This document shows, piece by piece, positions 2,389-21,032 of a stretch of DNA of 26,638 nucleotides. The DNA is from an uncultured Erysipelotrichaceae bacterium (GTDB taxonomy: Bacteria > Bacillota_I > Bacilli_A > RF39 > UBA660), in contig CACZQZ010000004.1 of the NCBI GenBank assembly GCA_902783405.1, positions 1-26,638 on the forward strand. The letters run 5' to 3'. How positions within the stretch are numbered: position 1 is the stretch's first letter; each line of letters begins with the position of its first letter. A program made the position numbers and the translations under genes. Below the pieces are notes generated by a model. It saw nothing but the letters and a program-made list of their open reading frames with translations. It made no database searches and had not been told where the DNA came from.

Positions 2389-3828
2389 ATGGAAAAAATT
2401 ACAATTGATTCATTACTTCAAAATCTTGAAGGAAGGTCACTCACTGAATTAGAAAAAATTCGTAAGGCGTATAATTATGCAGATAATTTACATTATGGAC
2501 AACTGAGACAAAGCGGAGAAGCATATATTACGCATCCACTTACTGTAGCTTATATTTTATCTGAACTTGGAGCAGATACGGATACAATATGTGCTGGACT
2601 TTTACATGATACACTAGAAGATACGGAAACAACCAAAGAAGAAATTGCAGAGTTATTTAATAAAGATGTTGCTAATTTAGTAGATGGAGTAACCAAAATT
2701 AGTAAGTTAAATTTTTCATCAAAACAAGAACAAAATATGGCTAATGCTAGAAAAATTATTACAAGTATTACAAATGATGTAAGAATTATTATTATTAAAC
2801 TTGCTGATCGCTTACATAATATGCGAACTTTAGAGTATAAATCAGAATATAAGCAAAAAGAAAATTCAATAGAAACGATGGAAATTTTTGTTCCTATTGC
2901 TTATCATATTGGAACTTACCGAATCAAAAGTGAACTTGAAGATTTATCATTACGTTATTTGAAACCAGATATGTATAAACAAATAGAAGATAAAAAAATA
3001 AAAGTGGAAGAAGATAGCAAAACGTGCTTAAAAGAAATGTATGAACAAATAAAAGATATATTAACTAGAAAAGATATTCCTAATGAAATTAAAGTTAGAA
3101 CTAAAAATATTTATGGTATTTATAAAAGATTAAATGATGGCCATAAATTATCTGATATTCATGACTTGTTATCATTAAAAATAATGGTTGATGATATACC
3201 AAATTGTTATCAAACACTTGGTATGATTCATAATATTTATCATCCAATTAATAATAAATTTAAAGATTATATTTGTAATCCCAAAACAAATATGTATAAA
3301 TCTCTTCATACAACGGTATTTGGACCAGAAGAAAGACTTGTACAAACACAGATAAGAACTTTTGATATGGATAAAGTAGATTCTTTTGGACTAACAGCTT
3401 ACTGGAATATTAGTAAAGGAAATGCTAGAGATATTATGCAAAAAGAATTAAAAGAAAAATATCAATTCTTTAGATCTCTTTTAGAAATTAATAAAGCATT
3501 TGGAGATAACAGTGAATTTATTGAACAAGTAAAAAATGAATTATTATCAGATAAAATATATGTATATACATCTAAAGGAGATATCATAGAACTTCCTAAA
3601 GGATCAACACCAATTGATTTTGCTTACAAAATACATACTGAACTGGGAAATACAATGGTAGCTGCTATTGTAAATGATGAGTATGTACCAATTGATTGTA
3701 CTTTAAAGAATCAAGATAGAGTAAGAATTATTAAAGATGATTTATCTTTTGGGCCTAGAAAAGATTGGGAAGATAAAGTCGTAACAACAAAAGCTAAAAG
3801 GAAAATTAAGGAATTTAATAAAAAATAA
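2389..3828 (+). CDS. RelA/SpoT family protein (479 aa): HD hydrolase + degenerate synthetase + TGS, no ZFD/ACT domains
   Basis: HD motifs RQSGEAYITHP, LLHDTLEDT, KLADRLHNMRTL; synthetase-like KDYICNPKTNMYKSLHTTV and QTQIRT; TGS motif LPKGSTPIDFAYKIHTELG. RBS AAGGAGG. Confidence 0.95.
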   Translation: MEKITIDSLLQNLEGRSLTELEKIRKAYNYADNLHYGQLRQSGEAYITHPLTVAYILSELGADTDTICAGLLHDTLEDTETTKEEIAELFNKDVANLVDGVTKISKLNFSSKQEQNMANARKIITSITNDVRIIIIKLADRLHNMRTLEYKSEYKQKENSIETMEIFVPIAYHIGTYRIKSELEDLSLRYLKPDMYKQIEDKKIKVEEDSKTCLKEMYEQIKDILTRKDIPNEIKVRTKNIYGIYKRLNDGHKLSDIHDLLSLKIMVDDIPNCYQTLGMIHNIYHPINNKFKDYICNPKTNMYKSLHTTVFGPEERLVQTQIRTFDMDKVDSFGLTAYWNISKGNARDIMQKELKEKYQFFRSLLEINKAFGDNSEFIEQVKNELLSDKIYVYTSKGDIIELPKGSTPIDFAYKIHTELGNTMVAAIVNDEYVPIDCTLKNQDRVRIIKDDLSFGPRKDWEDKVVTTKAKRKIKEFNKK

Positions 3829-3884: not shown

Positions 3885-5096
3885 ATGGAGATTAAATATG
3901 ACTTAACAGAAAAAGAATTAAAAGAGGTAGCAAAAAAAAATAATAAAACAATTGAAGAAGTTGCTAACGATTATAAATATGCATTAAAAGATTTAGAATA
4001 TTCATTAAAAGAGATAAATTCAATAATTGAAAAAAACAATTATAAAACTGATTTTAATAATATCAATATTAAAGGGTATGGAAAGAATGATGAATTAAAA
4101 AATAAATATATATGTTATGATAATATTGAAAAGGCCAATACATATAACATAGATGATATGGCTATTGTTACTGGATTTGGACCAACGAGTGCACCAACAG
4201 CCGGTACTTTATCGTCAATTTTTAAAGTATTAGAACTACAACGAGAAACAGGCATATATACACATATTATCATATCAGAACTTAGTGCACTTAATTCAAG
4301 ACAAAAACCATTAGATGATTTGTTTTTATATACTAAACAGTTCATTTCTTTTATAAAAAAACTTGGCTTTGATGAATCAAATGGGGAAATTAGAACTCAT
4401 AATTTCTTGGATCACTCCAGAATTTTTTCGATTATTTCAAGTGTTTTTAAAATTAGTGATTTTATAGGTGGAGAAGTAACAGATGAAATGTATAAGAGAT
4501 TAAATTTACTTGGAAATGATTACTCAACAATCGTTAGTCAAGTGTATACTGTTGCTGATATTGTTTTGCCAATCATAAGAGATAAGAAAAAATTTGTTAT
4601 AGTTCCAGCAGGACTAGAAGAACATTTATATCCATATCTTGCTCGTGTAAGTGTAGAAAGAATAAAAAGTAAATCAGGAGGAATAAATAATTTAATAGAA
4701 AAAGATGCGACCGTTTGTGCTTTATATGGTAAATTAATTAGTGGATTATTTCCTTACGTTAAAATGTCAAAGAGTATTAAAGAATCATCAATTAACTTAG
4801 GAGATACCAAAGAAGAAATTTATCAAAAAATAGTGGAATGTGGAAAAAGAAATGAGGAAGTAATATTACAGATGATTGTTCTTGCTTCTAATTGGAAATC
4901 GTCTGAAGTTCATATGGCAACAAAAGCATTTGAAAACATGGAAAACAATTATGATGAATGGTTAAAATATAAAATAAAGTATTATAATTTTTTTATAGAA
5001 CTTAAGCAATTGTGGGATGATTCTAAATATAATAAGTTCATAGATACATATAATGAGTTATTTAAGGAGAAAGAAAATGAAATTAATTATCTGTGA
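3885..5096 (+). CDS. Divergent class Ic aminoacyl-tRNA synthetase-like protein (archaeal-type TrpRS/TyrRS-like), function unknown
   Basis: GFGPTSAPTAGT in place of GFxPSGxxHLGH; IIISELSAL; VADIVLP; VPAGLEE; SGLFPYVKMSKS followed by INLGDTKEEIYQKI. RBS GAGAGGT. Confidence 0.75.
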   Translation: MEIKYDLTEKELKEVAKKNNKTIEEVANDYKYALKDLEYSLKEINSIIEKNNYKTDFNNINIKGYGKNDELKNKYICYDNIEKANTYNIDDMAIVTGFGPTSAPTAGTLSSIFKVLELQRETGIYTHIIISELSALNSRQKPLDDLFLYTKQFISFIKKLGFDESNGEIRTHNFLDHSRIFSIISSVFKISDFIGGEVTDEMYKRLNLLGNDYSTIVSQVYTVADIVLPIIRDKKKFVIVPAGLEEHLYPYLARVSVERIKSKSGGINNLIEKDATVCALYGKLISGLFPYVKMSKSIKESSINLGDTKEEIYQKIVECGKRNEEVILQMIVLASNWKSSEVHMATKAFENMENNYDEWLKYKIKYYNFFIELKQLWDDSKYNKFIDTYNELFKEKENEINYL

Positions 5097-5868
5097 TATG
5101 AGTGGTATTGCTTCAAGTAAGGGTGTAAATAATGAGATATTATTAAATACACTTAATAACTTGAAAAATTATGAATGCACTTTTTGCACTGGTAAAGGAT
5201 ATAATGGAGGGTATCAAACTTTGAAAGATATTAATTTAAAAGTACCATTTATATGTGAAAATGGTTCTGTTATAGTAACTAAAGATGGTACCGCACTATA
5301 TCATGATAAAATGGATTATAATAAAATAAAAAAATTAATTTGTAAGTTAAATAAAATGCCATATGAATTTTTGGCATATGTTGATTTGAAATCCCATAAA
5401 TATAAATTTTTAAAAGGATGTAAAAAGCTAAGTGAAGATTTGAGTCAACCATGGTTTTATAGTGAAGAAATCTATGACAATATAGATGAATTTTTAAATA
5501 ACATAGATAAAAATAATATTTGCAGAATAACAACTAGAGGATTGGAACTAGATAATTCAATAGAAGAACTTAAAGATTTTGATGTTGTATTATCAGAAAA
5601 TGAATTTCATTCTATTTGTAATAAGGGAACGAATAAAGGCTTTGGAGTAAAAAAATTAGCAGATATTTATAACATTAAATTAAATGATATCATTATTATT
5701 GGAAATGATTTGAATGATATTGATATGTTTAAATTAGAGTGCAGTTTAAAAATTGCCACAGGTGAAACAAAGCCACCACGAGAACTAATTGATTTATCTG
5801 ATGTTTATGTTCCTTTATGTGATTTACCTGATTTTTTAACAAAAATTGACAAAAAAAATGATATATGA
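5077..5868 (+). CDS. Cof-type HAD-superfamily (IIB) hydrolase with atypical motifs (263 aa)
   Basis: MKLIICDMSG (motif I variant), CTGK, FICENGSVI, KGTNKGFGVKKL, IIIGNDLNDIDMF. RBS AAGGAG at 5064-5069 supports ATG 5077; overlaps the upstream gene by 20 nt. Confidence 0.85.
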   Translation: MKLIICDMSGIASSKGVNNEILLNTLNNLKNYECTFCTGKGYNGGYQTLKDINLKVPFICENGSVIVTKDGTALYHDKMDYNKIKKLICKLNKMPYEFLAYVDLKSHKYKFLKGCKKLSEDLSQPWFYSEEIYDNIDEFLNNIDKNNICRITTRGLELDNSIEELKDFDVVLSENEFHSICNKGTNKGFGVKKLADIYNIKLNDIIIIGNDLNDIDMFKLECSLKIATGETKPPRELIDLSDVYVPLCDLPDFLTKIDKKNDI

Positions 5869-5899: not shown

Positions 5900-7051
5900 A
5901 TGGGTGATATAGTTTTAACTGGTGATAGACCAACAGGAAGATTGCATTTAGGACATTTAGTTGGCTCATTATCCCAAAGAGTAGAATTGCAAAATTCTGG
6001 ACAGTTTGAACAGATTTTCATTGAAATAGCTGATGCCCAAGCAACAACGGATAATTCTGGAAACATTCAGAAGGTTAAGGACAATGTTATTGAAGTTGCA
6101 TTAGATTATCTTTCTTGTGGAATTGATCCAACAAAAAGTACAATTTTTTTACAATCAGAAGTACCAGAATTGAGTGATTTAACATTTTATTATATGAATT
6201 TAGTAACTTTAGCTAGATTGCAAAGAAATCCAACAGTAAAACAAGAAATTATATATAGAGGATTTAATAATACTATTCCAGTTGGATTTATGACGTATCC
6301 AATTAGTCAGGCAGCAGATATTACAGCATTTAATGCTAATGTAATACCTGTTGGTGACGATCAACTTCCAATGATAGAACAGACAAGAGAAATCGTAAGA
6401 ACATTTAATAGATTATATGGTGAAACTTTAGTTGAACCAAGAGCGGTATTACCTAAAAATGAATCTTGTCAAAGGTTACCAGGAACTGATGGACAAGCAA
6501 AAATGAGTAAGTCTATGGGAAATTGTATATTTCTAGCTGACTCTCCAGAAGAAGTTAAAAGAAAAGTAATGGGAATGTATACGGATCCTAATCATTTAAA
6601 AGTTTCTGATCCTGGGAAAACAGAAGGTAATCCAGTATTTATATATTTAGATGCTTTCTGTAAAGATAAACATTTTAAAGAATATTTTACCAATCAAGAA
6701 ACAGGAAAAATGGAATATAAAAATTTAGATGAATTAAAGGCACATTATGAACGTGGTGGCTTAGGAGATATAAAAGTGAAAAAATTCTTAAATTATGTTC
6801 TTCAAGATACTTTGACCCCAATACGTTCTAGAAGGCAAGAATATGAACAACACATATTAGAAGTATATAAAATTTTATTTGATGGAAGTGATAAAGCTAG
6901 AAAAATTGCTGCTGAAACACTTGGAAAAGTTAAAAAAGCTATGGGATTAGATTACAGAAATGATTTAGAATTAATTAATAATCAATGTGCTAAATATGGT
7001 TCGTCACCAATTAAAGTAGAAGAAAAAAAACTAGAGGCATATAAAAAATAG
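5900..7051 (+). CDS. trpS: Tryptophan--tRNA ligase, TrpRS-II (TGDRPTG) subtype (383 aa)
   Basis: TGDRPTGRLHLGH, IADAQA, RLQRNPTVKQE, YPISQAADI, PVGDDQLPMIEQ, KMSKS, YTDPNH. RBS GGAGG supports ATG 5900 rather than 5846. Confidence 0.96.
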   Translation: MGDIVLTGDRPTGRLHLGHLVGSLSQRVELQNSGQFEQIFIEIADAQATTDNSGNIQKVKDNVIEVALDYLSCGIDPTKSTIFLQSEVPELSDLTFYYMNLVTLARLQRNPTVKQEIIYRGFNNTIPVGFMTYPISQAADITAFNANVIPVGDDQLPMIEQTREIVRTFNRLYGETLVEPRAVLPKNESCQRLPGTDGQAKMSKSMGNCIFLADSPEEVKRKVMGMYTDPNHLKVSDPGKTEGNPVFIYLDAFCKDKHFKEYFTNQETGKMEYKNLDELKAHYERGGLGDIKVKKFLNYVLQDTLTPIRSRRQEYEQHILEVYKILFDGSDKARKIAAETLGKVKKAMGLDYRNDLELINNQCAKYGSSPIKVEEKKLEAYKK

Positions 7052-7070
7052 GATTTCATATCCTATTTTT
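7044..7070. terminator. Bidirectional terminator between convergent trpS and kinase-like gene
   Basis: AAAAATAGGA-tttcata-TCCTATTTTT perfect 10 bp inverted repeat overlapping both stop codons. Confidence 0.85.
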
Positions 7071-8193
7071 GTTTTACATGAATTGTTTTAATTATATAGT
7101 TAAATTTTTCTCTATAATTAAACCCTGATTTTAATATGAAACTTTCTATATTTTTAAAAATATCATTTAATTCTATCGTTCTTTTTTCTATATCAATGTT
7201 ATTATAGTTTAGTAATTCCTGAAATAGTAATACTGTTGGAGCAAGACTTAATTCTAAAAAGGATTTAACAATTTCGGTGGAGGAACATTTAGATATTTCA
7301 ATATTTTCTTTTTCCGTTATAGATACTTTTAAAGAATGTGTAATTCGCATATCACTAAATTCAACATTTTTTCCGATTATATCAAAATTAATCGAAAATT
7401 GATTTTTTTTACCATATTTAAATAATTCATTTCTATTTTTGTTTTTCATAGAAAGAAATGTCTCATTTATTATTCCTTTTTCTAAAAAGTAATCTTCAAA
7501 TGCTAAGTATGTTCCAACTCTAATATTAAAATAGTTTCGAATATTGTATGGTAAAATAGCACCTTGTTTTGTAATGTAAGTAGTTTCTTCTGTGATTATA
7601 TCCCAATTATTTAATGCAAATAGTAATGCAAAAGTAGTTTTACCTCCAAGACTTGAATTATTAATTAATATATTTTGATTATCTTTATTTACTAATCCAC
7701 CGTGTATACCATACAGTTCTCCGTACATAAGATAAGGTGTTAATAGTAAAATATTAATCATTGTAATTGCTTTTTTATTTTTTTTTACAATCATGAAACA
7801 TTCTTGTTTATTTTTATTAAAAATATATATAAAATAGGCATAACATTTTATTATGTAATATTTTTTGTCTTTTGAGCATTTTGCAAGTGAAGTAGTTAAT
7901 GTCGCTTTGTTAAAATCTTTAATAGCATTTGTTTCAATTAAATCGTTACTTTTGATATAATTGTTTATTCTATTAAAAATATTTTCATCTTCTACAATAT
8001 ATGTAATCAAAGTGTTATTACTGTTTTGTCCTTTAAAAAGATTATTAAAAGCATTGGAAAAATCGATTAATTTTTTTGAATAAAATTCATAGTAACAATT
8101 TACTTGTGTTATTAACTTGTTGTTTTTAAAAGTAATTTCTTTTTTTTTATGATTTTTTTTGTATTGATTTATTTCATTTATGATCTGTCTCAT
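7063..8193 (-). CDS. HPr kinase-related P-loop protein (HprK-related family), atypical motifs
   Basis: IHGGLV...ILINNSSLGGKTT...IITEETTYI matches the H(A/G)xxV...GxSGxGKS/T...xDD pattern of HprK-related kinases. Overlaps the upstream nucleotidyltransferase gene by 20 nt. Confidence 0.65.
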   Translation of the reverse strand: MRQIINEINQYKKNHKKKEITFKNNKLITQVNCYYEFYSKKLIDFSNAFNNLFKGQNSNNTLITYIVEDENIFNRINNYIKSNDLIETNAIKDFNKATLTTSLAKCSKDKKYYIIKCYAYFIYIFNKNKQECFMIVKKNKKAITMINILLLTPYLMYGELYGIHGGLVNKDNQNILINNSSLGGKTTFALLFALNNWDIITEETTYITKQGAILPYNIRNYFNIRVGTYLAFEDYFLEKGIINETFLSMKNKNRNELFKYGKKNQFSINFDIIGKNVEFSDMRITHSLKVSITEKENIEISKCSSTEIVKSFLELSLAPTVLLFQELLNYNNIDIEKRTIELNDIFKNIESFILKSGFNYREKFNYIIKTIHVKQK

Positions 8194-9271
8194 TATATAT
8201 CCTCCTATATTTATGAATTACATCATATGAAAATATTCGTTCTGTTATTGTTGAAGAAGTTATCATCTTTTTATTTTCATCTTCTTGCTCAAATATTATA
8301 TTTAATATATTTTCTGTTTTAATTTTACGTAATAAACTCTCAATTTGATTGCTTTTACTATCTGGAAATAATTCAGTTGTATATGTTAGTGAAAAATAAA
8401 TATATTTTTCTAAACTATATTTTTTAATCTCTTGATATAGAATATCTATATCAATTTCAGTAAAGTATTTTTTTATAAAATAATAAATGTCAATAAATTT
8501 ATATAAATCTAAAACTTTTCTTTTTTTTAATATACCGACTAGTGATGAATCTTTATAGAGATGTATACATAATTCTATAAAATTATGATAATAGTTTAAA
8601 GAATATATTGGGATGTTATCATTTTTTATAATTGAAATTCTATTTTTTAAAAAATAATCTACAATTTCATTATTGTTTTGACTCCAGTCTATTGAAAAAT
8701 TTAAATCAACATCAATGGTTTCGACAGCAGGATTATTGTTTTTTCTCACAAATGGTGCGGTTTCACCTCTGGTTAAAATACTTTTATCTAATTCTTCTTG
8801 TGTAAACTTTATTATTTTTTTATTTTTATAATCATATTTTCCTTGTATGAATCCTAAGTTATGTAAAATATTTGTTACTACTGGAATAGAATCCTTTTTT
8901 ATCAATATATCAATATCATTACTTGCTCTAGATCCGTATTTGAATAATGTATTATTTAAAATAGAACCTTTTAAAAAAACATATTCAATATTATTTTTAT
9001 CTAATTCATTAGAAATAATATTTATCCATTTATTTTGTTCTAATGTTCTCTCTTTTTGTAATTCATTTATCATGTATGTTGTGAAATATACTGGATAGTC
9101 AAATTTTCTTACACCGATTTTTTCCATCTTTTCATATGTTAAGCCGGCAACTCTATGGTATGTTAGGTATCCTAAAATATTAATCCAATTTACATTATTT
9201 AAAAAAAAATCATCGTGTACATTTACATCATATTTTAATAATTCCAAAATTAATTTATGTTCTTGATTCAT
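8174..9271 (-). CDS. Nucleotidyltransferase family protein (uncharacterised NTP_transf_5 type)
   Basis: FLKGSILNNTLFKYGSRASNDIDILI and C-terminal LCIHLYK...FIDIYYF pattern. RBS GGAGG on the minus strand. Confidence 0.85.
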   Translation of the reverse strand: MNQEHKLILELLKYDVNVHDDFFLNNVNWINILGYLTYHRVAGLTYEKMEKIGVRKFDYPVYFTTYMINELQKERTLEQNKWINIISNELDKNNIEYVFLKGSILNNTLFKYGSRASNDIDILIKKDSIPVVTNILHNLGFIQGKYDYKNKKIIKFTQEELDKSILTRGETAPFVRKNNNPAVETIDVDLNFSIDWSQNNNEIVDYFLKNRISIIKNDNIPIYSLNYYHNFIELCIHLYKDSSLVGILKKRKVLDLYKFIDIYYFIKKYFTEIDIDILYQEIKKYSLEKYIYFSLTYTTELFPDSKSNQIESLLRKIKTENILNIIFEQEDENKKMITSSTITERIFSYDVIHKYRRIYNETDHK

Positions 9272-9362
9272 ACATTATTTGCCTCCCACAATGAAATTAA
9301 AGTATTTAATATATTCTATCATAAATCATCAAATTTAGAAATAAATTTTTCATATAGATTGT

Positions 9363-9391
9363 TTGTGTTATTTTAAGTTTTGTGATAAAAT
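9363..9391 (+). promoter_or_regulatory. Rightward promoter of the divergent intergenic region (AKR / HAD-TrpD-like unit)
   Basis: TTGTGT (9363-9368), 17 nt spacer, TG-a-TAAAAT extended -10 (9386-9391). A minus-strand TG-a-TAGAAT near 9314-9322 could drive the leftward operon. Confidence 0.55.
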
Positions 9392-9420
9392 ATGGGGAAT
9401 AAATCATTTGAGGTGATTTC

Positions 9421-10299
9421 ATGGATGATATTCGTATTTCAAAGATAGGATTAGGGACTTGGTTACTGGGTGGAGATGTTAAGGCAAATATTAATAATAA
9501 TGATGAAAAAGACTTAAATGCTATTAAGTATGCGATTAAAAATGGAATTAACCATATAGACACATCAGAAAGTTATTCTGGTGGAAAGAGTGAAATACTA
9601 ATTGGACAATCAATAAAATGTTTTGAACGTAATAAAATTTTTATTGCTACTAAAGTTAGAGAGTGGAATTTATCATATGATAAACTTATATTATCATGTA
9701 TGAAATCTTTAAAACGGTTGGATACAAATTATATAGATCTATATTATGTGCATAAACAAAATAAAGCAATTCCAATTGAAGAAACATGCAAAGCATTAAA
9801 CTATTTATTAGAAAAAGGTTTTATAAAAAATGTCGGATTATCAAATGTTGGCATAGAAACGATTGAAAAATTTAATTTATTATTAGATAAGCAAGTATAT
9901 GCAGTTCAAAATCAGTATAATTTGATTTGTAGAGAGTCTCAGGTTAAAGGAATTATTGAATATTGTAGAAAAAATAATATTAAATTTATATGTTGGAGAC
10001 CAATTTTATTATCATATCCGGGAGTCTCTGATCCGATGTATAAAAAAGGTACTTATCCTGTGCTTGATGAAATGGCAAAAAAATATCATGTTTCGAATGT
10101 TCAAGTCGTTGCTAAATGGTTGCTACAGCAAGATAACGTATATATTATATTTAAGAGTAATAATATAAAGCATATTCAGGAAATATTAGAAACACAAAAT
10201 TTTAATCTTTCAAGGAAAGATTGGCAAATATTAAACTATAATTTTCCAATTCAATTTGACAGGGGATGTGCAAGTAATGAATTTTATGAAGTTTCCTAA
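9421..10299 (+). CDS. Aldo/keto reductase
   Basis: IGLGTW, GINHIDTSESY (Asp/Tyr), IATK (Lys), DLYYVH (His), VGLSN, QNQYNL. RBS GAGGTG. Confidence 0.95.
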   Translation: MDDIRISKIGLGTWLLGGDVKANINNNDEKDLNAIKYAIKNGINHIDTSESYSGGKSEILIGQSIKCFERNKIFIATKVREWNLSYDKLILSCMKSLKRLDTNYIDLYYVHKQNKAIPIEETCKALNYLLEKGFIKNVGLSNVGIETIEKFNLLLDKQVYAVQNQYNLICRESQVKGIIEYCRKNNIKFICWRPILLSYPGVSDPMYKKGTYPVLDEMAKKYHVSNVQVVAKWLLQQDNVYIIFKSNNIKHIQEILETQNFNLSRKDWQILNYNFPIQFDRGCASNEFYEVS

Positions 10300-12079
10300 A
10301 GCATTTCTACTTGATTTAGACGGCACTGTATTGGATACAGAATCATTGTATTTACAATTAATGATGAATTATAATAAAAAATATGGTCTACATATTTCAA
10401 AACAATTTTATATTAATAACTTTTTAGGAAAATCTAGGGATGTTATATCAGAAATTATGAAAATAAGATGGAAAGATAAATATGATGAAAACGAATATTG
10501 GATGGGCTTATTAAAATATAGAAAAGATTATTTAAAAAATAATAAAGTTAAAGCAAAAGAAGGATTTTTAGAATTTATAAAATATGTAAAACTAAATCAT
10601 AGTTATATTGGAATTGTGACATCAAATTCTTTGGATTTAGTAAAATTTTTACTACAACAAGCAAATATAAATGAAAATGATTTCGATATTATTATTTGTA
10701 GAGATAATGTGGAAAAGATAAAACCATATTCAGATTTATATGAATTTGCTATAAAAAAATTAAGAATAAAAAAAGAAGATATCATTGTTATAGAAGATAG
10801 CCCTATCGGTATTGAGGCAGCTATAAATGCTAATTTAAAAATTATAAATATAAAAGATATTGCTTTTGTAAATAAAGATTTAAATCAGAAATGTTGCATG
10901 ACTATCAATTCATTCTATGATATCATTAATTTTATGAAAATGTTGGAGGTCAATATGGAAATAATCAAGTCAAAAAAAAACAAAGAACCTTTTGAATCTT
11001 TGTATAAATTGAATGTAGGTTTATCCTTAGATGAATATGAGGCAGAAGAAGCTATGAACATTATATTAAATGAATCGGATATACAAAAAAGAATTAGTTT
11101 ATTAACAATGTTATTAAATGGCATAATGATAAAAGGGCCAACGGTTAACGAAATTAGTGGATTATTAACTGCTTCATTAAATATGGATGATGTACTAAAA
11201 AGTAATAAGTTAGAAATTAAAATGCCTAATAATGATATGATTGTTGGCGTTGCATCTAGTGGAAAAAAAGGAATTAAAACAATTAATATAACAACCGTTT
11301 CATGTTTTGTAGCTGCTGCATGTGGTGTAAATATTGCGAAGGCATGTTCACATTCTACATCATCAAAGACTGGATCAACTGATTTTTTAGACATTTGTGG
11401 TATAAATGTAAATATACCATTTGAAAAAAAAGTTGAAATATTTAAAAAACACCATATTTCATTCTTTTCTATTGAAGAGACAACACCAAAATTTGCTAAA
11501 GTTTATGGTGGAATATTTTATGCACCACATGCAATGAGTTTTGGATTAGCAGGATTAAGTTTTCCAATAAAAGTTGATTCACTTGCATATGGATTATCAC
11601 ATCCAAATGTAAAATTATCTGCTGAAGTTTTGAAAAAATTTGGGGTGAAGAATGCACTTATCTATTCTTCAACATACGATGGTATTCATTTTTTAGATGA
11701 ACTGTTGCCAGTTGGATGTGTAAATTTTGCTAGGATTAAAAATGGGAATGTAGAAAAAACTATTTCAGCGGATATACATGAAGCTTTAGATTTGACATCT
11801 GGTTTTGATTTATCTAGTATTAAAGAAAAAGAAGATAAAAAAGACAATGTGATAGAATCTATAAAAATTTTACACGGTGATGGTACGGAAAGTCAAATTG
11901 ATACAATTTGTATTAATGTTGCAATATTTTTATTACTTGGTCATAAAGTAGATTCATTAGAAGAAGGTTATAGGAATGCAAAAAGTATAATTAAAACTAA
12001 TAAAGTATGGAATTTATTTTTAAATGTAGTTGAATTATATGGTGGTAGTAAAGAGTATATTGAAAGTTTACTACTTTAG
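10277..12079 (+). CDS. Fusion: HAD-IA phosphatase (N-terminal ~226 aa) + divergent anthranilate phosphoribosyltransferase (TrpD)-like domain (from Met at 10955)
   Basis: HAD motifs DLDGTVLDTE, IVTSN, KIKPYSDLY, IEDSPIGIEAA. TrpD-like motifs KGPTVNEISG, ASSGKKGIKTINITT, KACSHSTSSKTGSTD, FLDE, INVAIFL. RBS AGGGG before 10277 and a second RBS GGAGGT before in-frame ATG 10955. Confidence 0.85.
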   Translation: MNFMKFPKAFLLDLDGTVLDTESLYLQLMMNYNKKYGLHISKQFYINNFLGKSRDVISEIMKIRWKDKYDENEYWMGLLKYRKDYLKNNKVKAKEGFLEFIKYVKLNHSYIGIVTSNSLDLVKFLLQQANINENDFDIIICRDNVEKIKPYSDLYEFAIKKLRIKKEDIIVIEDSPIGIEAAINANLKIINIKDIAFVNKDLNQKCCMTINSFYDIINFMKMLEVNMEIIKSKKNKEPFESLYKLNVGLSLDEYEAEEAMNIILNESDIQKRISLLTMLLNGIMIKGPTVNEISGLLTASLNMDDVLKSNKLEIKMPNNDMIVGVASSGKKGIKTINITTVSCFVAAACGVNIAKACSHSTSSKTGSTDFLDICGINVNIPFEKKVEIFKKHHISFFSIEETTPKFAKVYGGIFYAPHAMSFGLAGLSFPIKVDSLAYGLSHPNVKLSAEVLKKFGVKNALIYSSTYDGIHFLDELLPVGCVNFARIKNGNVEKTISADIHEALDLTSGFDLSSIKEKEDKKDNVIESIKILHGDGTESQIDTICINVAIFLLLGHKVDSLEEGYRNAKSIIKTNKVWNLFLNVVELYGGSKEYIESLLL

Positions 12080-12196
12080 TTTTAAAATATTTCTTATAAA
12101 TTTGATTATGATTTTTAAATGATGTGAATTTATGATGGGTTTATAAAAGATTGAGGAAAATGCTAAAAAATTAATATTAAAGAGGTTTTAGAAGAT

Positions 12197-12466
12197 ATGA
12201 TTTATAAATTTAAATTCTTTTTTACAGATGGAACTTCACAACTTGGTGATGCTTGGAGTAAAAATCCGCGAACATTATATAATGATTTTGATGGGTTGAT
12301 GGATTGGAATGAGTTTGAACAATTACATAATGAAGATTTAACAGTTCATCAAGTTTTAGAATTAGCTATGGAAGTTTATAAACCAATAAGAAAAGAATAT
12401 TATAGAATTGAAATAGTCAATGTTGATACTGGTGAAGTTGTAGATTATATTGATATTAGAGAATAA
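12197..12466 (+). CDS. Hypothetical protein (89 aa, acidic)
   Basis: RBS AGAGGT, clean ORF, motif resemblance to 12964-13275. Confidence 0.75.
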   Translation: MIYKFKFFFTDGTSQLGDAWSKNPRTLYNDFDGLMDWNEFEQLHNEDLTVHQVLELAMEVYKPIRKEYYRIEIVNVDTGEVVDYIDIRE

Positions 12467-12508
12467 AATGAAAGGAAAAAATAGGGTATATTTGAAATAA
12501 TTATTTGC

Positions 12509-12533
12509 AGAAGGATTTTTTCCTTCTTTTTTT
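12509..12533 (+). terminator. Intrinsic terminator
   Basis: AGAAGGA-ttttt-TCCTTCT followed by a T-run. Confidence 0.75.
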
Positions 12534-12605
12534 GTTGAAAAAATTTGATAAATTAAATCTTATAACGATATAAAGAGAATAATAACAACTTATGAAAAAG
12601 ATTCA

Positions 12606-12923
12606 TTGCTTAATTTATTAATTAAAAATGATGAATTACAAAGAAAAATAAGAGGATATCATTATCGTAATAATAAATTATATTCACTAATAGTATTGTA
12701 TTTTGTAGAAGGTAAGAATGAATATTTATTATCAGCATTTAAATGGTATTTTGATGATAAAAACTTCTCTATTAAAAATATTAATAATTCATATAGTATT
12801 GATGATTGTTTGTTTTACGGCTTTCCAATTTTTGATAAAGATTACTATGATATTATGAAGAAAGTGATAATTAATTTAAATAAAAATTATAAAAACAAAA
12901 TAAGAATTAGAAATCAGTATTAA
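12606..12923 (+). CDS. Hypothetical protein (105 aa, TTG start), possibly frameshifted from ATG 12592
   Basis: ORF fills the gap between neighbours. Weak RBS; out-of-frame ATG-A5 14 nt upstream. Confidence 0.5.
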   Translation: MLNLLIKNDELQRKIRGYHYRNNKLYSLIVLYFVEGKNEYLLSAFKWYFDDKNFSIKNINNSYSIDDCLFYGFPIFDKDYYDIMKKVIINLNKNYKNKIRIRNQY

Positions 12924-12963
12924 TTTGTGTTATTATGTTTGTAATGGATGGTGGTAAACTATT

Positions 12964-13275
12964 ATGATAAATTTAGAAGAATTAAAATTTAATAAGAATA
13001 ATCAATTATATGAAACCGGATATAGGATTGTGTATTTTTATGAAGATGGTAATTATTCTATTGGAGAGTTTTGTAAAACAATTGAAGGTTTTATGATTGG
13101 ATTTGCTGATAGTAACCCAATTATTGATGATGAAGATATACCAAAATTTATTTCAAATAAGGATTTATTAAATAGATGTTTAAAATATGATGAAAAAGCA
13201 ATTGGTGCTGCTATTTATAAAACAGATGGGACTTTAATTGATAGAATAAGTAGTAAAGCTAATAAAAAAATCTGA
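12964..13275 (+). CDS. Hypothetical protein (103 aa)
   Basis: RBS GGTGGT, clean ORF, motif resemblance to 12197-12466. Confidence 0.75.
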   Translation: MINLEELKFNKNNQLYETGYRIVYFYEDGNYSIGEFCKTIEGFMIGFADSNPIIDDEDIPKFISNKDLLNRCLKYDEKAIGAAIYKTDGTLIDRISSKANKKI

Positions 13276-13366
13276 GTTTTTTGTACTTAGTATTATCATG
13301 AAATAAATTTGATAATAAAGTAATGTTTTACCATTTTTTTAATGCTTAAAAATTTTTTACAAATAT

Positions 13367-13387
13367 AAGGAAGAAATTCCTTTTTTT
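13367..13387 (+). terminator. Intrinsic terminator abutting the next promoter
   Basis: AAGGAA-gaaa-TTCCTT hairpin with GNRA loop, followed by a T-run. Confidence 0.65.
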
Positions 13388-13388
13388 G

Positions 13389-13418
13389 TTGAAAAATGGT
13401 TATAAATTATAGTATAAT
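13389..13418 (+). promoter_or_regulatory. Sigma-A type promoter for the AMP-dependent ligase gene
   Basis: TTGAAA (13389-13394), 18 nt spacer, TATAAT (13413-13418). Confidence 0.7.
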
Positions 13419-13461
13419 TTAGTTAGAAGAATAAGGGGACATAATGAAAGGATAAAGTAAT

Positions 13462-15330
13462 ATGACAAAAGAAGATTTATTAAAATTAAAAATGAAATTA
13501 TCTAAATTATCTGAAGAAGAACAAAAGAAAAGAAACCTTTATTTAAGAGATTTAGCAAGTGGAGAACTGCAAGGACCACCAACGGGATATCCTAGTATAG
13601 ATAAACCATGGCTAAAACATTATGATTTTTCCAAATTAGATTATTTGGATATTAAAAAAACAGTATATCAAGAAGTTTACGATAATAATTTACCATATCA
13701 AAAAGAATTAGCACTCGAATTTTTTGGTACAAAGATATCATATAAAAAATTTTTTGAAAATGTTCAAAGCGCTGTTAAAGCGTTAAAAGAATATGGCGTG
13801 AAAAAAGGTGATTATGTTTCATTTTGCATTGCAGGAATTCCTGAAACTGCATACCTGTTTTATGCTTGTTCTTATATTGGAGCTATAGGAAACTTCATGA
13901 CACCAAATATGTATATGGAAGATATGGCAGAGAATGTAAACATTTCAGAATCAAAAATATTTTTTGTGATGGATAAATTCTATGAAAAAATAAGTCCTGC
14001 ACTTAAAAAAGCTAATGTAGATAATGTTATAATAGTACCAACACTTAATTCTTCGCTATTAAAATATGTTTCTCCAAAATTTAAAATTGTTAATTCAAAT
14101 GAATTATTTTGGAATCAATTTATAAAAGATGGAAAATATAAGAAAGCAGAAGAACCAGTAAAATATGAAAAAGATTCTCCACTGGTAGTTGTTTATTCAT
14201 CCGGAACAACAGGTAGATATAAAGGAATACTACTATCTAATGATAGTTTTCAAAATTCTGTTCATAGTTATCCATCGATTGGTGTGGATATTTCTAGAAA
14301 TCAAAAATTTTATCAAATTATACCACCATGGGTATCTACAGGTTTAAGCACATCACTTCATTTACCATTAACTTATGGTGTTTCAGTATTTATGGATCCT
14401 CGTTTTGAAAGAGAACCATTTGTAAAAAATATTATTAAACATAAGATAAATTATGCAGTTGCTACAACTAGTATGTATGAGGGATTTTTAGATGAAAACT
14501 TAGTTAAAAATAAAATTTGGCCATCCATTAATTATCCATTTCAAGGTGGAGAAGCATTACCTATTGAAAAACAAATAAAAATAGATGAAGCTTTCAAAAA
14601 GCATGGATGCGATGCAAAAATTAGATCTGCTTATGGTCAATGTGAATGTGGAGCCGCAATTGTTACTCAAACACAAAAAATAGATCATCCAAAAGGATCT
14701 TCTGGAATTCCACTTCCTGGTATAAATCTAGCCATTGTTGATGATGATAAAAATGAATTAACTGTTAATACAAGAGGAAATATTTTTGTTGATACTCCAT
14801 GTGGAATGTTAAAATATTTTAATAATGATAAATTGACAGAAGAATATTTTTATATTGATAAACAAGGTACTAAATGGAGTCAAACAGGAGATATTGGATA
14901 TATAGATGAAAATGGTAATTTGTTTATAGAAGGAAGAAGTAAAGATTATACAATAGTAAATGATAACAAAATCTATAATTTCGATATTGAAAAAATCATT
15001 TTACAAGATTCTAGAATTAAAGATTGCGATGTAGTTGCTAGAACTGATGGCGAAAAGCAAGAATTATTTGCACATATTATTTATGTAGATGAAGTAGCAA
15101 ACAATAAAGATTTCAATATTGAAGAAAATTTAAAAGAAATACAAGAAAGAATATATCAATATTATGATAATCTAAATATGGTTCCTAATTTATTTAAGAT
15201 AAGAACAGAATTTCCTTGTGCTATGTCTGGAAAAAGGGACGTACGGGCTATGCAACAAGATAATGACAATGTTATTTTCTTAAATTCTAAAGAATTAGTT
15301 AAAACTTTAAAAAAAGTTAAAAGTATGTAA
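13462..15330 (+). CDS. AMP-dependent synthetase/ligase (class I adenylate-forming, acyl-CoA ligase-like)
   Basis: YSSGTTGRYKG, YGQCE, SGIPLPG, TGDIG, GRSKD, C-terminal SGKRD. Confidence 0.93.
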   Translation: MTKEDLLKLKMKLSKLSEEEQKKRNLYLRDLASGELQGPPTGYPSIDKPWLKHYDFSKLDYLDIKKTVYQEVYDNNLPYQKELALEFFGTKISYKKFFENVQSAVKALKEYGVKKGDYVSFCIAGIPETAYLFYACSYIGAIGNFMTPNMYMEDMAENVNISESKIFFVMDKFYEKISPALKKANVDNVIIVPTLNSSLLKYVSPKFKIVNSNELFWNQFIKDGKYKKAEEPVKYEKDSPLVVVYSSGTTGRYKGILLSNDSFQNSVHSYPSIGVDISRNQKFYQIIPPWVSTGLSTSLHLPLTYGVSVFMDPRFEREPFVKNIIKHKINYAVATTSMYEGFLDENLVKNKIWPSINYPFQGGEALPIEKQIKIDEAFKKHGCDAKIRSAYGQCECGAAIVTQTQKIDHPKGSSGIPLPGINLAIVDDDKNELTVNTRGNIFVDTPCGMLKYFNNDKLTEEYFYIDKQGTKWSQTGDIGYIDENGNLFIEGRSKDYTIVNDNKIYNFDIEKIILQDSRIKDCDVVARTDGEKQELFAHIIYVDEVANNKDFNIEENLKEIQERIYQYYDNLNMVPNLFKIRTEFPCAMSGKRDVRAMQQDNDNVIFLNSKELVKTLKKVKSM

Positions 15331-15346
15331 ACTTTTAATTTTTTTT
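15311..15346 (+). terminator. Probable AT-rich terminator overlapping the ligase stop codon
   Basis: TTAAAAGT-atgtaa-ACTTTTAA followed by T8. Confidence 0.5.
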
Positions 15347-15388
15347 ATGTTTTTTATGGTATACTTAAAGAAGGATAGGAATGGTATT

Positions 15389-17215
15389 ATGATTATAACA
15401 AAATCTACATTATTAATAATTTTTAGTATTATATATATAAGTGCAATGATTGGCATTTATTTTGCTAAAGAAAGAGAAAAAAATGAGGAAACTAGAATAT
15501 ATACATATCTTTTGATAACCAATTTATTTAGTTTGATATTTCAAATTTTATGCATTATATATTCATATAACTATGATTGTCTTAATATGCATATGTGTAA
15601 TTTTATATTTAAAACGTATTCTGTTTTATTTTTGGTTTATGTGACATATTTATTGATATATTTAGTCATTATTAGTTTTGATAATTATAAAAAAATTATG
15701 TGGGTAATTCATACATTATTAAATATTAGTGTTGTTATTACATTTTTATTACCAGCAAAATTATATGTATCCCCTGATAAGTCTTCTTTTTATACAACAG
15801 GATTAGCTATGGATTTTGTGTATTTTGTGTCGCTTGTTATTTCAACTTCCATTATTGCAATATTATTTATAAAAAGAAAAAAAATATCAAAAGTTAAAAC
15901 GATACCTTTACATAGTTTTGTTGTTCTTGGTTTAGTTGCAATGATTATTCAAAAAATAAATCCAGAATTAAGTATAATGAGCGCTGTTGAAACATTTTTA
16001 TGTTGTATGATGTATTTTACGATTGAAAATCCAGATTTAAAAATGATAAGACAACTAGAATTAGCAAAAAACGGTGCTGAAAAAGCAAATAGAGCTAAAT
16101 CAGATTTCTTATCTAGTATGTCTCATGAAATTAGAACACCACTAAATGCTATTGTAGGTCTTTCTGAAGATATTGCTTCATATAAAGATCAAGTACCAAA
16201 AGAAGTGGTAGAAGATACAGAAGACATCCGAAATGCATCCCAAACATTACTTGAAATTGTTGGAAATATCTTAGATATCAATAAAATTGAAAGTAATAAA
16301 ATAGAGATTGTAGAAACAACATATGTACCAAAAGAATTAATTGAAACATTAGCTAAAATAAATGCTACTAGAATAGGGGAAAAACCAATTCATTTTAATA
16401 TGAATATCGCAGAAGATCTTCCTTATGAACTTTTAGGCGATAAACTTCATATTAAAGAAATAATTAATAATTTACTTAGTAATGCTTTTAAGTATACAGA
16501 TAGAGGAGAAGTTACTTTAACAGTAAAATGTATTAATAAAGATAATCTTTCCAACTTAATTATCAGTGTAAAAGATACAGGCCGCGGAATTAAAAAAGAA
16601 AATATTGATAAATTATTTACTAAATTTGAACGACTAGGAGCAGACAGGAATACAACCATTGAGGGAACAGGACTAGGTCTTGCCATTACAAAAAATTTAA
16701 TTGAAATGATGGGGGGGACTATTAATGTTCAAAGTCAATTTGGAGAAGGATCTTTATTTGTTGTATTCTTACCACAAAAAATAAGTAAAATGGAAAAACC
16801 AGATGTTGTAGAGTTAAAACAAGAAGTTACTAAAGAAGTAAAAGATTATGGACATAAAAAAATACTTATTGTTGATGATAATATGCTAAATATTAAAGTA
16901 GCTAGAAGAGCGCTTTCTGATTTTAATTTTGAAATAGATGAAGCAACCGATGGATATAGATGTTTAGAAAAAGTAGTAAAAGGTAATGAATATGATTTAA
17001 TTTTAATGGATATTATGATGCCTAATATGGGTGGTGAAGAAACTTTATCTAAATTAAAAGAAAATCCAGAATTTAAAATACCTACTATTGCTTTAACTGC
17101 AGATGCTGTTGCTGGAGCAGAAGAAAAATATAAAGAAGAAGGATTTATTGATTATTTAGCAAAGCCTTTCTCAAGAAATCAGATTAAAGAAAAATTAGAG
17201 GAAATATTTAAATAA
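15389..17215 (+). CDS. Membrane-bound hybrid sensor histidine kinase/response regulator
   Basis: About 7 hydrophobic N-terminal segments; HisKA FLSSMSHEIRTPLNAIVG; HATPase NLLSNAFKYT, DTGRGI, GTGLGLAI; receiver ILIVDDN, ILMDIMMP, AKP. ATG 15389 is the Met with an RBS-like AGGA upstream. Confidence 0.95.
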   Translation: MIITKSTLLIIFSIIYISAMIGIYFAKEREKNEETRIYTYLLITNLFSLIFQILCIIYSYNYDCLNMHMCNFIFKTYSVLFLVYVTYLLIYLVIISFDNYKKIMWVIHTLLNISVVITFLLPAKLYVSPDKSSFYTTGLAMDFVYFVSLVISTSIIAILFIKRKKISKVKTIPLHSFVVLGLVAMIIQKINPELSIMSAVETFLCCMMYFTIENPDLKMIRQLELAKNGAEKANRAKSDFLSSMSHEIRTPLNAIVGLSEDIASYKDQVPKEVVEDTEDIRNASQTLLEIVGNILDINKIESNKIEIVETTYVPKELIETLAKINATRIGEKPIHFNMNIAEDLPYELLGDKLHIKEIINNLLSNAFKYTDRGEVTLTVKCINKDNLSNLIISVKDTGRGIKKENIDKLFTKFERLGADRNTTIEGTGLGLAITKNLIEMMGGTINVQSQFGEGSLFVVFLPQKISKMEKPDVVELKQEVTKEVKDYGHKKILIVDDNMLNIKVARRALSDFNFEIDEATDGYRCLEKVVKGNEYDLILMDIMMPNMGGEETLSKLKENPEFKIPTIALTADAVAGAEEKYKEEGFIDYLAKPFSRNQIKEKLEEIFK

Positions 17216-17221
17216 AAAAAT

Positions 17222-17265
17222 ATTTCCAAAACTTGCCCAGAAAGGATAGTTTTGGAAATTTTTTT
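17222..17265. terminator. Strong, probably bidirectional terminator
   Basis: ATTTCCAAAACT (17222-17233) / AGTTTTGGAAAT (17248-17259) 12 bp stem, T-run downstream and A-run upstream. Confidence 0.85.
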
Positions 17266-17334
17266 CCGAAACTTGATATTATATTGAATAAATAAGGGTA
17301 TATTTAATAAATAAGATAATTTTTTTAAATTTAA

Positions 17335-17363
17335 TTGACTAAATCTTTTTAAATGAATATAAT
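17335..17363 (+). promoter_or_regulatory. Near-consensus sigma-A promoter of gltX
   Basis: TTGACT (17335-17340), 17 nt spacer, TATAAT (17358-17363). Confidence 0.85.
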
Positions 17364-17379
17364 TAAGTTGGTGATTTTT

Positions 17380-19038
17380 ATGACAAATAAAGAATTAGCA
17401 GACATTATGTTTCCAAATGTGAAACATGATATAGAGTATTATGAAAATTTATATCCAGAGCGAAATTTAAAAGAAGGAGCAGTCGTATCTAGATTTGCAC
17501 CAAGTCCAACAGGATTTGTACATATGGGAAGCTTGCTTGCCGCTTTCATCGAAAGAAAAGTGCCAAAACAAACAGGGGGAGTATTCTTTCTTAGAATTGA
17601 AGATACAGATGGAAAAAGAACAGTTGAAAATGGTATTGGTGGAATTATTGCTGATTTAAAGGCTTTTCATATCGATATAGATGAAGGTGTAATTAGTGAA
17701 ACTGAAAGTAAGGGTGAATATGGACCTTACATTCAAAGTGAGAGAAAAGAAATATATGAAACTTATGCTAAATATTTAGTAGAACAAGGACTCGCTTATC
17801 CTTGCTTTTGTACACCAGAAGAAATAGAAGAAATAAGAAGTGTTCAAGAAAAGAAAAAAGACCGTATTGGATATTATGGAAGATGGGCTAAATGTAAATA
17901 TTTAAGTAATGAAGAGAGAATAGAGAGAATCAAAAATGGAGAAAAATTTATTGTAAGATTAAATTCTCCAGGTAACTTTGATAATAAAGTTGTTTTAAAT
18001 GATTTAGTAAGAGGAAGAATCGAAATGCCAGAAAACGATATGGATATCGTTTTAATTAAAAGTGATGGCCTTCCATTATATCATTTTGCTCATGTTATTG
18101 ATGATCATTTAATGAGAACAACACATGTCTTAAGAGGAGAAGAGTGGATTCCATCAACTCCATGTCATTTACAATTATTTAAAATCTTTGGTTGGAAAGC
18201 TCCTAAATATGCACATTTAGGTCTAGTTATGAAAATTGGCGAAGATGGTGCTAGAAGAAAACTATCCAAAAGAAAAGATCCTGAAGCAGCTGTTAGTTTT
18301 TATCATGAAAAAGGAATTCCAGTAGAAGCTGTTAAATATTATTTAATGACGATTGCTAACTCTAATTTTGAAGCTTGGTGGGATCAGAATAAAGATAAAA
18401 CTTATGATGATTTTACTTTTGATTTTAAGAAAATGAGTTTGAGTGGTTCATTATTTGATTTAGAAAAACTTCTTAATATTTCAAAAAATTATATTAGTAC
18501 GATGAAAGCAGAAGAATTATATGATGAATTAGTTACATATACTGAAGAATTTGATTCTGAATTTCATCAAATTTTAAAAAATGATAAAGATTATGCTTTA
18601 AAAGTTTTAAATATTGAAAGAGAAAAGAAAAAACCTCGTAAAGATTATGCTATGTATAGTGATATAAGAAAATATTCTTGGTATATGTTTGATGAATTAT
18701 TTGAAAAAGAAGAAAAAACATATGATTTTCAAAATATCAATGATAAAGATGAAATTAAGAATATCGTAAATGAGTATTTTACTAATTATTATGATGAAAA
18801 TGATGATCATGAAACTTGGTTTAACAAAATGAAAGAACTTGCTAAAAAATTAGGTTATGCAGATAATATGAAAGACTATAAAGAAAATCCAGATAATTAT
18901 AAAGGAAACATTACTGATATTGCAACTGTTATTAGAGTAGCTATAACAACTCAAGCACAAACTCCAGATTTATATGAAATATTACAAGTTCTTGGTAAAG
19001 ATAGTATTTTAAAGAGAATAGAAAAAGAGTATTACTAA
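17380..19038 (+). CDS. gltX: Glutamate--tRNA ligase (long ~550 aa clostridial-type form)
   Basis: SRFAPSPTGFVHMGS, LRIEDTD, AYPCFCT, HVLRGEEW, KLSKRK. RBS GGTGA supports ATG 17380; the ORF-track start at 17353 lies inside the promoter. Confidence 0.97.
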   Translation: MTNKELADIMFPNVKHDIEYYENLYPERNLKEGAVVSRFAPSPTGFVHMGSLLAAFIERKVPKQTGGVFFLRIEDTDGKRTVENGIGGIIADLKAFHIDIDEGVISETESKGEYGPYIQSERKEIYETYAKYLVEQGLAYPCFCTPEEIEEIRSVQEKKKDRIGYYGRWAKCKYLSNEERIERIKNGEKFIVRLNSPGNFDNKVVLNDLVRGRIEMPENDMDIVLIKSDGLPLYHFAHVIDDHLMRTTHVLRGEEWIPSTPCHLQLFKIFGWKAPKYAHLGLVMKIGEDGARRKLSKRKDPEAAVSFYHEKGIPVEAVKYYLMTIANSNFEAWWDQNKDKTYDDFTFDFKKMSLSGSLFDLEKLLNISKNYISTMKAEELYDELVTYTEEFDSEFHQILKNDKDYALKVLNIEREKKKPRKDYAMYSDIRKYSWYMFDELFEKEEKTYDFQNINDKDEIKNIVNEYFTNYYDENDDHETWFNKMKELAKKLGYADNMKDYKENPDNYKGNITDIATVIRVAITTQAQTPDLYEILQVLGKDSILKRIEKEYY

Positions 19039-19051
19039 AAGGAGTATGAAA

Positions 19052-20011: not shown

Positions 20012-20024
20012 ATAACCTAAATAT

Positions 20025-20054
20025 AAAAACAAGTATGCAAAAGACTTGTTTTTT
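20025..20054 (+). terminator. Intrinsic terminator overlapping an extended -10 (TG-t-TATAAT, 20054-20062) for the glycosyltransferase operon
   Basis: AAAAACAAGT-atgcaaaag-ACTTGTTTTT. Confidence 0.75.
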
Positions 20055-20094
20055 GTTATAATAAAAATAGATAAATGAAATAGGATGTGAAAAT

Positions 20095-21030: not shown

Positions 21031-21032
21031 AT

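Follow-up and report, generated by a model that had tools for sequence, protein, structure and literature searches.

What does a TrpD look-alike do in a genome in which no tryptophan pathway is found? The question is raised by a gene at bp 10955–12079 (+ strand) of a 26,638-nucleotide stretch of contig CACZQZ010000004.1, hereafter the window, from an uncultured Erysipelotrichaceae bacterium. Read in one frame from ATG 10955 to 12079, the gene encodes a 374-residue protein with the fold of TrpD, the anthranilate phosphoribosyltransferase. An initial annotation of the window described this protein as a phosphoribosyltransferase with a rewired acceptor site, still using phosphoribosyl pyrophosphate (PRPP) and ribosylating something other than anthranilate. 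We think it probable that the protein is an 'Amadori synthase' of the TybC type. Such an enzyme would use PRPP to N-glycosylate the α-amine of an aromatic amino acid, most likely L-tryptophan, in a pathway like that of tyrocitabine. The fold, motif pattern, family conservation, gene linkage, fusions and failure to find a trp pathway were computed; from these we infer the donor, the acceptor, the order of steps and the product.

The fold is considered first. Pfam Glycos_transf_3 matches the protein (E = 2.9e-28), and its best NCBIfam match is trpD. The protein belongs to a family that we name for its GSGKKG loop. Set against solved TrpD and TrpD2/YbiB chains, as the initial annotation proposed, the family profile matches TrpD over the full length (best E = 3.4e-45) and YbiB not at all. 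The AlphaFold (AF2) model has a pLDDT (predicted local distance difference test) of 88.9, and TrpD accounts for every one of its 50 best PDB matches, with TM (template modelling) scores of 0.66–0.84. Hidden Markov model (HMM) alignments to the solved TrpD chains put the motifs listed here, numbered by window position, exactly on their TrpD counterparts.

10955–12079, + strand: TrpD-fold (Glycos_transf_3) domain or gene of the GSGKKG-loop family, with its own ATG (HMM, structure model, homologue starts)
11252–11272, + strand: ASSGKKG loop in place of GTGGDG; family consensus GSGKKG, K104 and K105 invariant (translation, HMM alignment)
11285–11296, + strand: NITT, the TrpD NxST PRPP/Mg motif (NIST), retained (translation, HMM alignment)
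11339–11353, + strand: KACSH for KHGNR; Lys kept, His/Gly/Asn replaced, S132 invariant (translation, HMM alignment)
11354–11383, + strand: STSSKTGSTD, the SSKxGSxD phosphate-binding segment (SSKSGSAD in TrpD), kept (translation, HMM alignment)
11474–11476, + strand: E174, an invariant, family-specific Glu at the Pro of the TrpD A-P-x-x-H-P segment (alignment)
11495–11542, + strand: AKVYGGIFYAPHAMSF, replacing the Arg segment for the anthranilate carboxylate; Y184 invariant (translation, alignment)
11696–11701, + strand: D248-E249, the acidic metal-binding pair ((G)xDE), retained and invariant (translation, alignment)

Translation and alignment bear out the initial annotation on two points: the TrpD backbone carries ASSGKKG, KACSH and a replaced Arg segment, and the PRPP and metal elements (NITT, SSKxGSxD and DE) are kept. 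The TrpD R..ELG.RT.FN segment reads KVYGGIFYAPHAMSF in the window protein. Relative to TrpD (EC 2.4.2.18; PDB 1ZYK, 9UCW), the whole fold is alike, and NxST, the Lys of KHGN, SSKxGSxD, DE and an LNA motif are common to both. In contrast, the window family has GSGKK for GTGGD, xxS for HGN and no Arg of R..ELG.RT, and it has E174, Y184 and D208 as new invariant residues. Of these, E174 is a candidate acid/base or ammonium ligand.

The proposal of a rewired acceptor site holds for the anthranilate ligands, which are lost. It does not hold entirely for the loop. In TrpD the main role of the GTGGD loop is to hold the PRPP diphosphate, so the changed loop is not purely an acceptor element. The change is sharp at only two of its positions (G→K and D→K), the T→S change being conservative. 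Residues invariant down to 31% identity are S102, G103, K104, K105, G106, K108, T109, N111, K129 and S132; S136, S137, G140, S141, E174, P178, Y184 and P204; and D208, D248, E249 and N321. This degree of invariance argues that the substitutions are no random decay and that the family is kept under selection as an enzyme.

Is the protein simply an ordinary TrpD, as automatic annotation has it? Source records give family members that name, and trpD is the best model match. However, the TIGR01245 (trpD) score is 136.4 bits (E = 1.3e-39), under the equivalog cut-off of 199.05, and GTGGD, KHGN and the Arg segment are gone. Neither a trpD above cut-off nor trpB, trpC (indole-glycerol-phosphate synthase, IGPS) or trpF (phosphoribosylanthranilate isomerase, PRAI) was found in the genome (970 kb in 142 contigs, 87% complete). 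No trp genes were seen in the related loci examined, where the TrpD-like gene never stands in a trp operon. Canonical TrpD was rejected on these grounds, and we give it next to no credence. The window protein does not act in tryptophan synthesis; it is a remodelled TrpD copy.

The same Glycos_transf_3 superfamily includes TrpD2/YbiB and the nucleoside phosphorylases II (NP-II), i.e., thymidine phosphorylase (TP), pyrimidine nucleoside phosphorylase (PyNP) and AMP phosphorylase. The window protein differs from both groups in giving only partial, marginal matches, in lacking the C-terminal NP-II domain and in its gene context. A phosphorylase or salvage enzyme of the NP-II kind would use the SGKKG loop as a phosphate site and carry out no PRPP transfer. 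TrpD and the thymidine, pyrimidine and AMP phosphorylases do have a common fold, the PyNP/TP models match weakly at the C-terminus, and the diphosphate loop now holds two Lys. Nevertheless, all of the 50 best fold matches listed are TrpD, the family profile matches nucleoside phosphorylases in the PDB only marginally, and the TIGR02644 score is 26 bits against a cut-off of 409. No Pfam match to the extra C-terminal NP-II α/β domain was found in the 374 residues. The TrpD-type DE pair and NxST are kept, and the reductase and phosphatase neighbors described below fit a ketose phosphate better. The NP-II assignment, rejected for the missing domain, the low score and the TrpD-only fold matches, is quite improbable.

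The neighboring genes raise another thought. The TrpD-like gene adjoins genes for class Ic aminoacyl-tRNA synthetases (aaRSs), and YbiB-type TrpD paralogues bind nucleic acids. The protein might then be a non-catalytic, nucleic-acid-binding helper of these synthetases, a TrpD2/YbiB-like tRNA or aaRS accessory. Against this, the YbiB-type model NF006564 covers residues 24–80 only (E = 3e-4), and no YbiB chain is among the PDB matches of the family profile. The PRPP/Mg residues are invariant, and fusions to a dehydrogenase and a phosphatase point to small-molecule chemistry. The TrpD2/YbiB candidate was rejected on the partial model match and its absence from the profile matches, and we reckon its chances as very slight indeed.

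Thus, an enzyme is left whose anthranilate ligands are gone. We infer that it uses PRPP. Which amine would then be its acceptor? The tyrocitabine (tyb) cluster was reportedly described by Patel et al. in Cell in 2022, who are said to have used the name 'Amadori synthase' for TybC and 'abortive tRNA synthetase' for TybB. According to a review of this pathway (PMC13235161), TybC of Lactobacillus iners glycosylates L-tyrosine using PRPP, 'likely via an Amadori rearrangement', and TybE reduces the TybC product. TybB, which resembles tyrosyl-tRNA synthetase (TyrRS) without its tRNA-binding domain, puts AMP on the carboxylate. Archaea and many Candidatus bacteria have related clusters, described in the review as always containing a TybB homologue and often a 'glycosyltransferase'. 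Beyond PMC13235161, nothing relevant on a TrpD-like/tRNA-synthetase pairing or on an 'Amadori synthase' was found in the literature searched.

The window gene stands in a cassette that is like tyb in its aaRS-like partner, its reductase, its proposed chemistry and its spread over archaea and Candidatus bacteria. Since the two agree in the genes present, in the sequence of reactions and in the range of organisms, a tyrocitabine-like pathway is proposed for the window gene. The likeness to TybC is judged from the review's description and from gene context. The two systems differ in that the window clade is linked to tryptophanyl-tRNA synthetase (TrpRS) rather than to TyrRS, and in that the TrpD-like protein is fused to a HAD phosphatase. 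The window cassette also adds a Cof-type HAD, a P-loop kinase-like protein and an NTP_transf_5 protein, and it is without a nonribosomal peptide synthetase (NRPS) or a phosphopantetheinyl transferase (PPTase).

The TybC precedent, together with gene context, suggests a PRPP-dependent N-glycosylation of an amine other than anthranilate. To this extent the ligands and context agree with the ribosylation foreseen in the initial annotation. Such chemistry is probably not new in kind, as TybC does likewise with L-tyrosine according to PMC13235161. Nor does the expected 'new N-riboside' fit well, as the product is more likely an Amadori-rearranged 1-amino-1-deoxy-ribulose 5-phosphate that is then reduced. 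The initial annotation had also overlooked the two features that say most about function, namely the in-frame fusion to a HAD phosphatase and the aaRS-like partner. The cassette genes are as follows.

3885–5096, + strand: degenerate class Ic aaRS-like paralogue, HIGH lost and KMSKS kept, with a putative TybB-like role (models, linkage)
5053–5868, + strand: Cof-type HAD (Hydrolase_3) phosphatase of the cassette (Pfam, context)
5900–7051, + strand: genuine TrpRS, HIGH and KMSKS intact (trpS about 237–241 bits against a cut-off of 177)
7063–9271, − strand: P-loop protein (GGKT; HprK-like by eye; no Pfam match) and NTP_transf_5 nucleotidyltransferase (Pfam, context)
9421–10299, + strand: aldo-keto reductase (AKR), probable reducer of the Amadori ketone, a TybE-like role (Pfam, context)

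How constant is this company? Context was surveyed in 57 genome loci, bacterial and archaeal. The degenerate aaRS-like gene lies within the fetched stretch in 52 of them, and in most it runs up to the start of the TrpD-like gene or sits within a few kb. The other usual companions are a reductase, a HAD phosphatase and a genuine synthetase, either TyrRS or TrpRS. The reductase is either an AKR or a member of the zinc-dependent alcohol dehydrogenase (Zn-ADH) family; in clades of Clostridia, Alphaproteobacteria and Bacilli (L030, L047, L043), a Zn-ADH-family reductase and a HAD phosphatase follow. As one reductase type is replaced by a non-homologous one across clades, this non-orthologous replacement argues that carbonyl reduction is an obligatory step. 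The pairing of reductase and HAD phosphatase fits a ketose 5-phosphate intermediate.

Natural fusions point to the same partners. The TrpD-like and aaRS-like proteins are joined in P0253 (736 aa) and P0256 (717 aa), and the TrpD-like protein is joined to a Zn-ADH in P0197 (fusion loci L070 and L071). These Rosetta-stone fusions, with the HAD fusion in the window, appear to tie the TrpD-like protein to its aaRS-like, Zn-ADH and HAD partners. The P0253 locus has a PPTase and a C39-ABC exporter alongside, as expected for a secondary-metabolite locus.

The genuine synthetase of the cassette suggests which amino acid is used. Every locus with enough flanking sequence and a TrpD-like protein at least 46% identical to the window's carries a genuine TrpRS, whereas about 30 loci with a TrpD-like protein at most 42% identical carry a genuine TyrRS. 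The split is clean over about 45 loci. A maximum-likelihood tree places the TrpRS-linked loci in a single clade (SH-aLRT 99) that lies within the TyrRS-linked lineages. The switch of synthetase from Tyr to Trp is thus seen as a single event and makes no statistical correlation. Residues of the former acceptor segments set the Trp-linked clade apart: A130 (P elsewhere), T176 and T177 are fixed in it and differ in the other loci. A181 is specific to the clade (D in 74% of the others), as is M194 (L in 86%). Because the window's TrpD-like protein sits in the TrpRS-linked clade, tryptophan is its likely acceptor, and the acceptor would have changed from Tyr to Trp.

A trpS survey covered the window genome (G000) and 40 relatives. 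No TrpRS other than that at 5900–7051 was found in the 87%-complete genome, and this one fits the trpS model less well than does the single TrpRS of genomes of the same genus (266–369 bits). The host's own TrpRS gene may be either unassembled or displaced. In a locus from Patescibacteria (L016), the gene for a cassette-type TrpRS is adjacent to another TrpRS gene.

Might the enzyme belong to the same class of PRPP-dependent N- or C-glycosylation and take an acceptor other than free tryptophan, such as tyrosine, an aromatic amine, an aminoacyl-AMP or an aminoacyl-tRNA? The cassette TrpRS would then be there for supply or by hitch-hiking. Specificity is read wholly from the linked aaRS, whose switch is one event on the tree. 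The aaRS-like partner scores nearly equally against TrpRS and TyrRS models, and the order of steps is a deduction. Such an acceptor is nevertheless unlikely given the clean TrpRS/TyrRS dichotomy and the clade-specific A130, T176, T177, A181 and M194 in the former acceptor segment.

With a TybC-type Amadori synthase acting on tryptophan as the preferred reading, the following scheme is proposed. The contacts to PRPP would be those of TrpD: NxST, K129, the SS/GSxD segment and the pair D248-E249, which binds Mg. The diphosphate of PRPP, the carboxylate of the amino acid (whose Arg partner is lost) or both would be held by K104 and K105, and E174, Y184 and D208 are candidates for ammonium binding or for Amadori proton shuffling. 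In the first step, PRPP would N-glycosylate the α-amine of the amino acid to give an N-(5-phosphoribosyl)amino acid. This would rearrange to the Amadori product, a 1-amino-1-deoxy-ribulose 5-phosphate, either on the enzyme or spontaneously. The upstream AKR would reduce the ketone at C2, the fused HAD and/or the Cof-type HAD would take off the 5-phosphate, and the degenerate TrpRS-like paralogue would adenylate the carboxylate without tRNA. The product would be a tryptophanyl-AMP-like nucleotide metabolite, the tryptophan analogue of tyrocitabine, with the genuine cassette TrpRS serving as an insensitive or spare copy.

PRPP transfer followed by phosphate removal is familiar, as a PRPP transferase and a phosphatase make up two-step ribosylations such as those of CobT/CobC and of BtrL/BtrP in butirosin synthesis. 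The window follows the same logic and makes it explicit in the HAD fusion. It differs in that those transferases have unrelated folds and in that its proposed pathway adds ketone reduction and adenylation.

A bolder proposal, which we put somewhat short of an even chance, is that the cassette makes an undescribed Trp counterpart of tyrocitabine, a nucleotide antibiotic that mimics Trp-AMP and acts against TrpRS. It would have arisen by the acceptor switch from Tyr to Trp, the drug-insensitive cassette TrpRS would have replaced the host's, and the producers would be ruminant-gut Bacilli with tiny genomes and Patescibacteria.

Several points weigh against an Amadori synthase of this kind. The altered GTGGD loop, with G→K and D→K, may mean another donor or a metal-independent mode. 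The TrpRS link goes back to a single event and could reflect hitch-hiking instead of substrate choice. The extra P-loop kinase-like and NTP_transf_5 proteins have no tyb counterpart, which may make for a considerably different end product. The two are conserved in TrpRS-linked cassettes only and is seen in none of the Tyr-type loci, so the end product is probably further from tyrocitabine. The activity of the window-clade enzyme is predicted from sequence and context. The placing of TybC in the GSGKKG family is tentative and follows the review's wording, and L. iners was not among the matches listed in two profile searches of a 5.8-billion-protein set.

How is the TrpD-like protein joined to its phosphatase? 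The reading frame of the gene is open upstream to bp 10277, making an in-frame fusion to an intact HAD_2 phosphatase. Two features mark the junction.

10277–10954, + strand: HAD_2 (subfamily IA) phosphatase domain, DLDGT motif intact (Pfam E = 3e-28, same open frame)
10945–10949, + strand: GGAGG Shine-Dalgarno sequence, 5 nt upstream of ATG 10955 (the TrpD-like part may be translated by itself)

In relatives, the HAD (220–232 aa) and TrpD-like proteins are encoded by separate genes that overlap by a few bases in different frames. Window bp 10277–12079 form one open frame and correspond to two genes in all relatives seen. The fusion arises from a short length difference in an unconserved linker. 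Contigs from four sheep and cattle gut metagenome studies, one of which may itself be the window's source, cover bp 10600–11300 with no difference and no indel, and the junction is identical in all. This population thus does carry the fusion, and an assembly artefact is rejected. No RNA data set was among the sources listed for this stretch. The starts of homologues of 371–391 aa coincide with the equivalent of ATG 10955, and translation from the internal ribosome-binding site could yield a free TrpD-like protein too. The TrpD-like stop at 12079 is the right border of the conserved cassette. Past it, three small open reading frames (89, 105 and 103 aa) lie at 12197–13275, with a counterpart seen in no related locus.

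How widespread is the family? An exhaustive profile search of 1.84 billion cluster representatives gave 641 matches at E < 1e-30. Among the best 150 of these, all that cover the loop read G-S-G-K-(K/D/E), with a handful of minor variants, and P0277 alone keeps TGGD. The spread is patchy, over uncultured Bacilli/'Tenericutes' with tiny genomes, Patescibacteria, Woesearchaeota, Nanoarchaeota, Clostridia, Proteobacteria and the actinomycetes Nocardia, Nocardiopsis, Dactylosporangium and Actinospica. Source labels are 'anthranilate phosphoribosyltransferase' or 'hypothetical protein'. Sister subfamilies (representatives P0200–P0278; L069) have the loops GSGKD(D/E), GSGKDTW or GSGKE(T/D), and one member, P0254, adjoins an aldehyde dehydrogenase on a haloarchaeal-looking contig.

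A sample of 24 genomes of the same family, five of them of the same genus, yielded no copy of the TrpD-like gene. In L001 (bp 1–21143 of a 550-kb contig), the same eight-gene cassette has Mob_Pre/AAA_25/HTH genes on one side and, on the other, a PHP-AAA_21 gene and a CBASS pair (SAVED, DncV-like), surroundings that look like a mobile or defence island. The absence from the sampled genomes and the mobilisation and defence flanks suggest that the gene is accessory and mobile. As to the cassette itself being a defence system, PADLOC gave nothing for its proteins except a weak match for the Rel-like gene, and this candidate was rejected.

These assignments have practical consequences. Hundreds of family proteins are labelled 'anthranilate phosphoribosyltransferase', which falsely suggests tryptophan synthesis in organisms without the pathway. 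A GSGK loop with an aaRS-like partner and a linked genuine aaRS would serve as a rule for spotting tyrocitabine-type pathways; the rule would predict the amino acid of the pathway and plausibly also the target synthetase. A Trp-type pathway, if true, would provide a new scaffold of aminoacyl-AMP-mimic antibiotics and a natural example of a TrpD fold that has turned from an aryl amine to the amine of an amino acid. From the fusions to HAD, dehydrogenase and aaRS-like proteins one can read the order in which evolution wired the partners.

Some minor features of the window and its relatives complete the description. A short Rel/SpoT homologue (HD, RelA_SpoT and TGS domains, about 480 aa) lies at window bp 2389–3828. 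Such homologues share the stretch with Trp- and Tyr-type cassettes in L003, L008, L009, L011, L020, L027 and L030, and they adjoin the cassette in several related Bacilli, which could be host synteny or part of an island. A Trp-type variant, L006 (bp 8869–21131), has a radical SAM/SPASM gene directly after the TrpD-like gene, two Cof-HADs, a PP-binding gene and two tandem genes for double-ABC ATPases, putatively ABC-F-like by their look. In L030 (bp 7957–8958), a Tyr-type locus from related uncultured Bacilli, the aaRS-like gene is immediately preceded by a sulfotransferase gene, and two genes for TyrRS-like proteins lie downstream. Finally, window bp 19046–20011 encode a protein of 321 aa, of which residues 10–147 make up a type I phosphoribosyltransferase domain. 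This second PRPP-type enzyme is unrelated to the TrpD-like protein, and downstream of its gene are two GT2 genes and an Alg14/Alg13-like pair.

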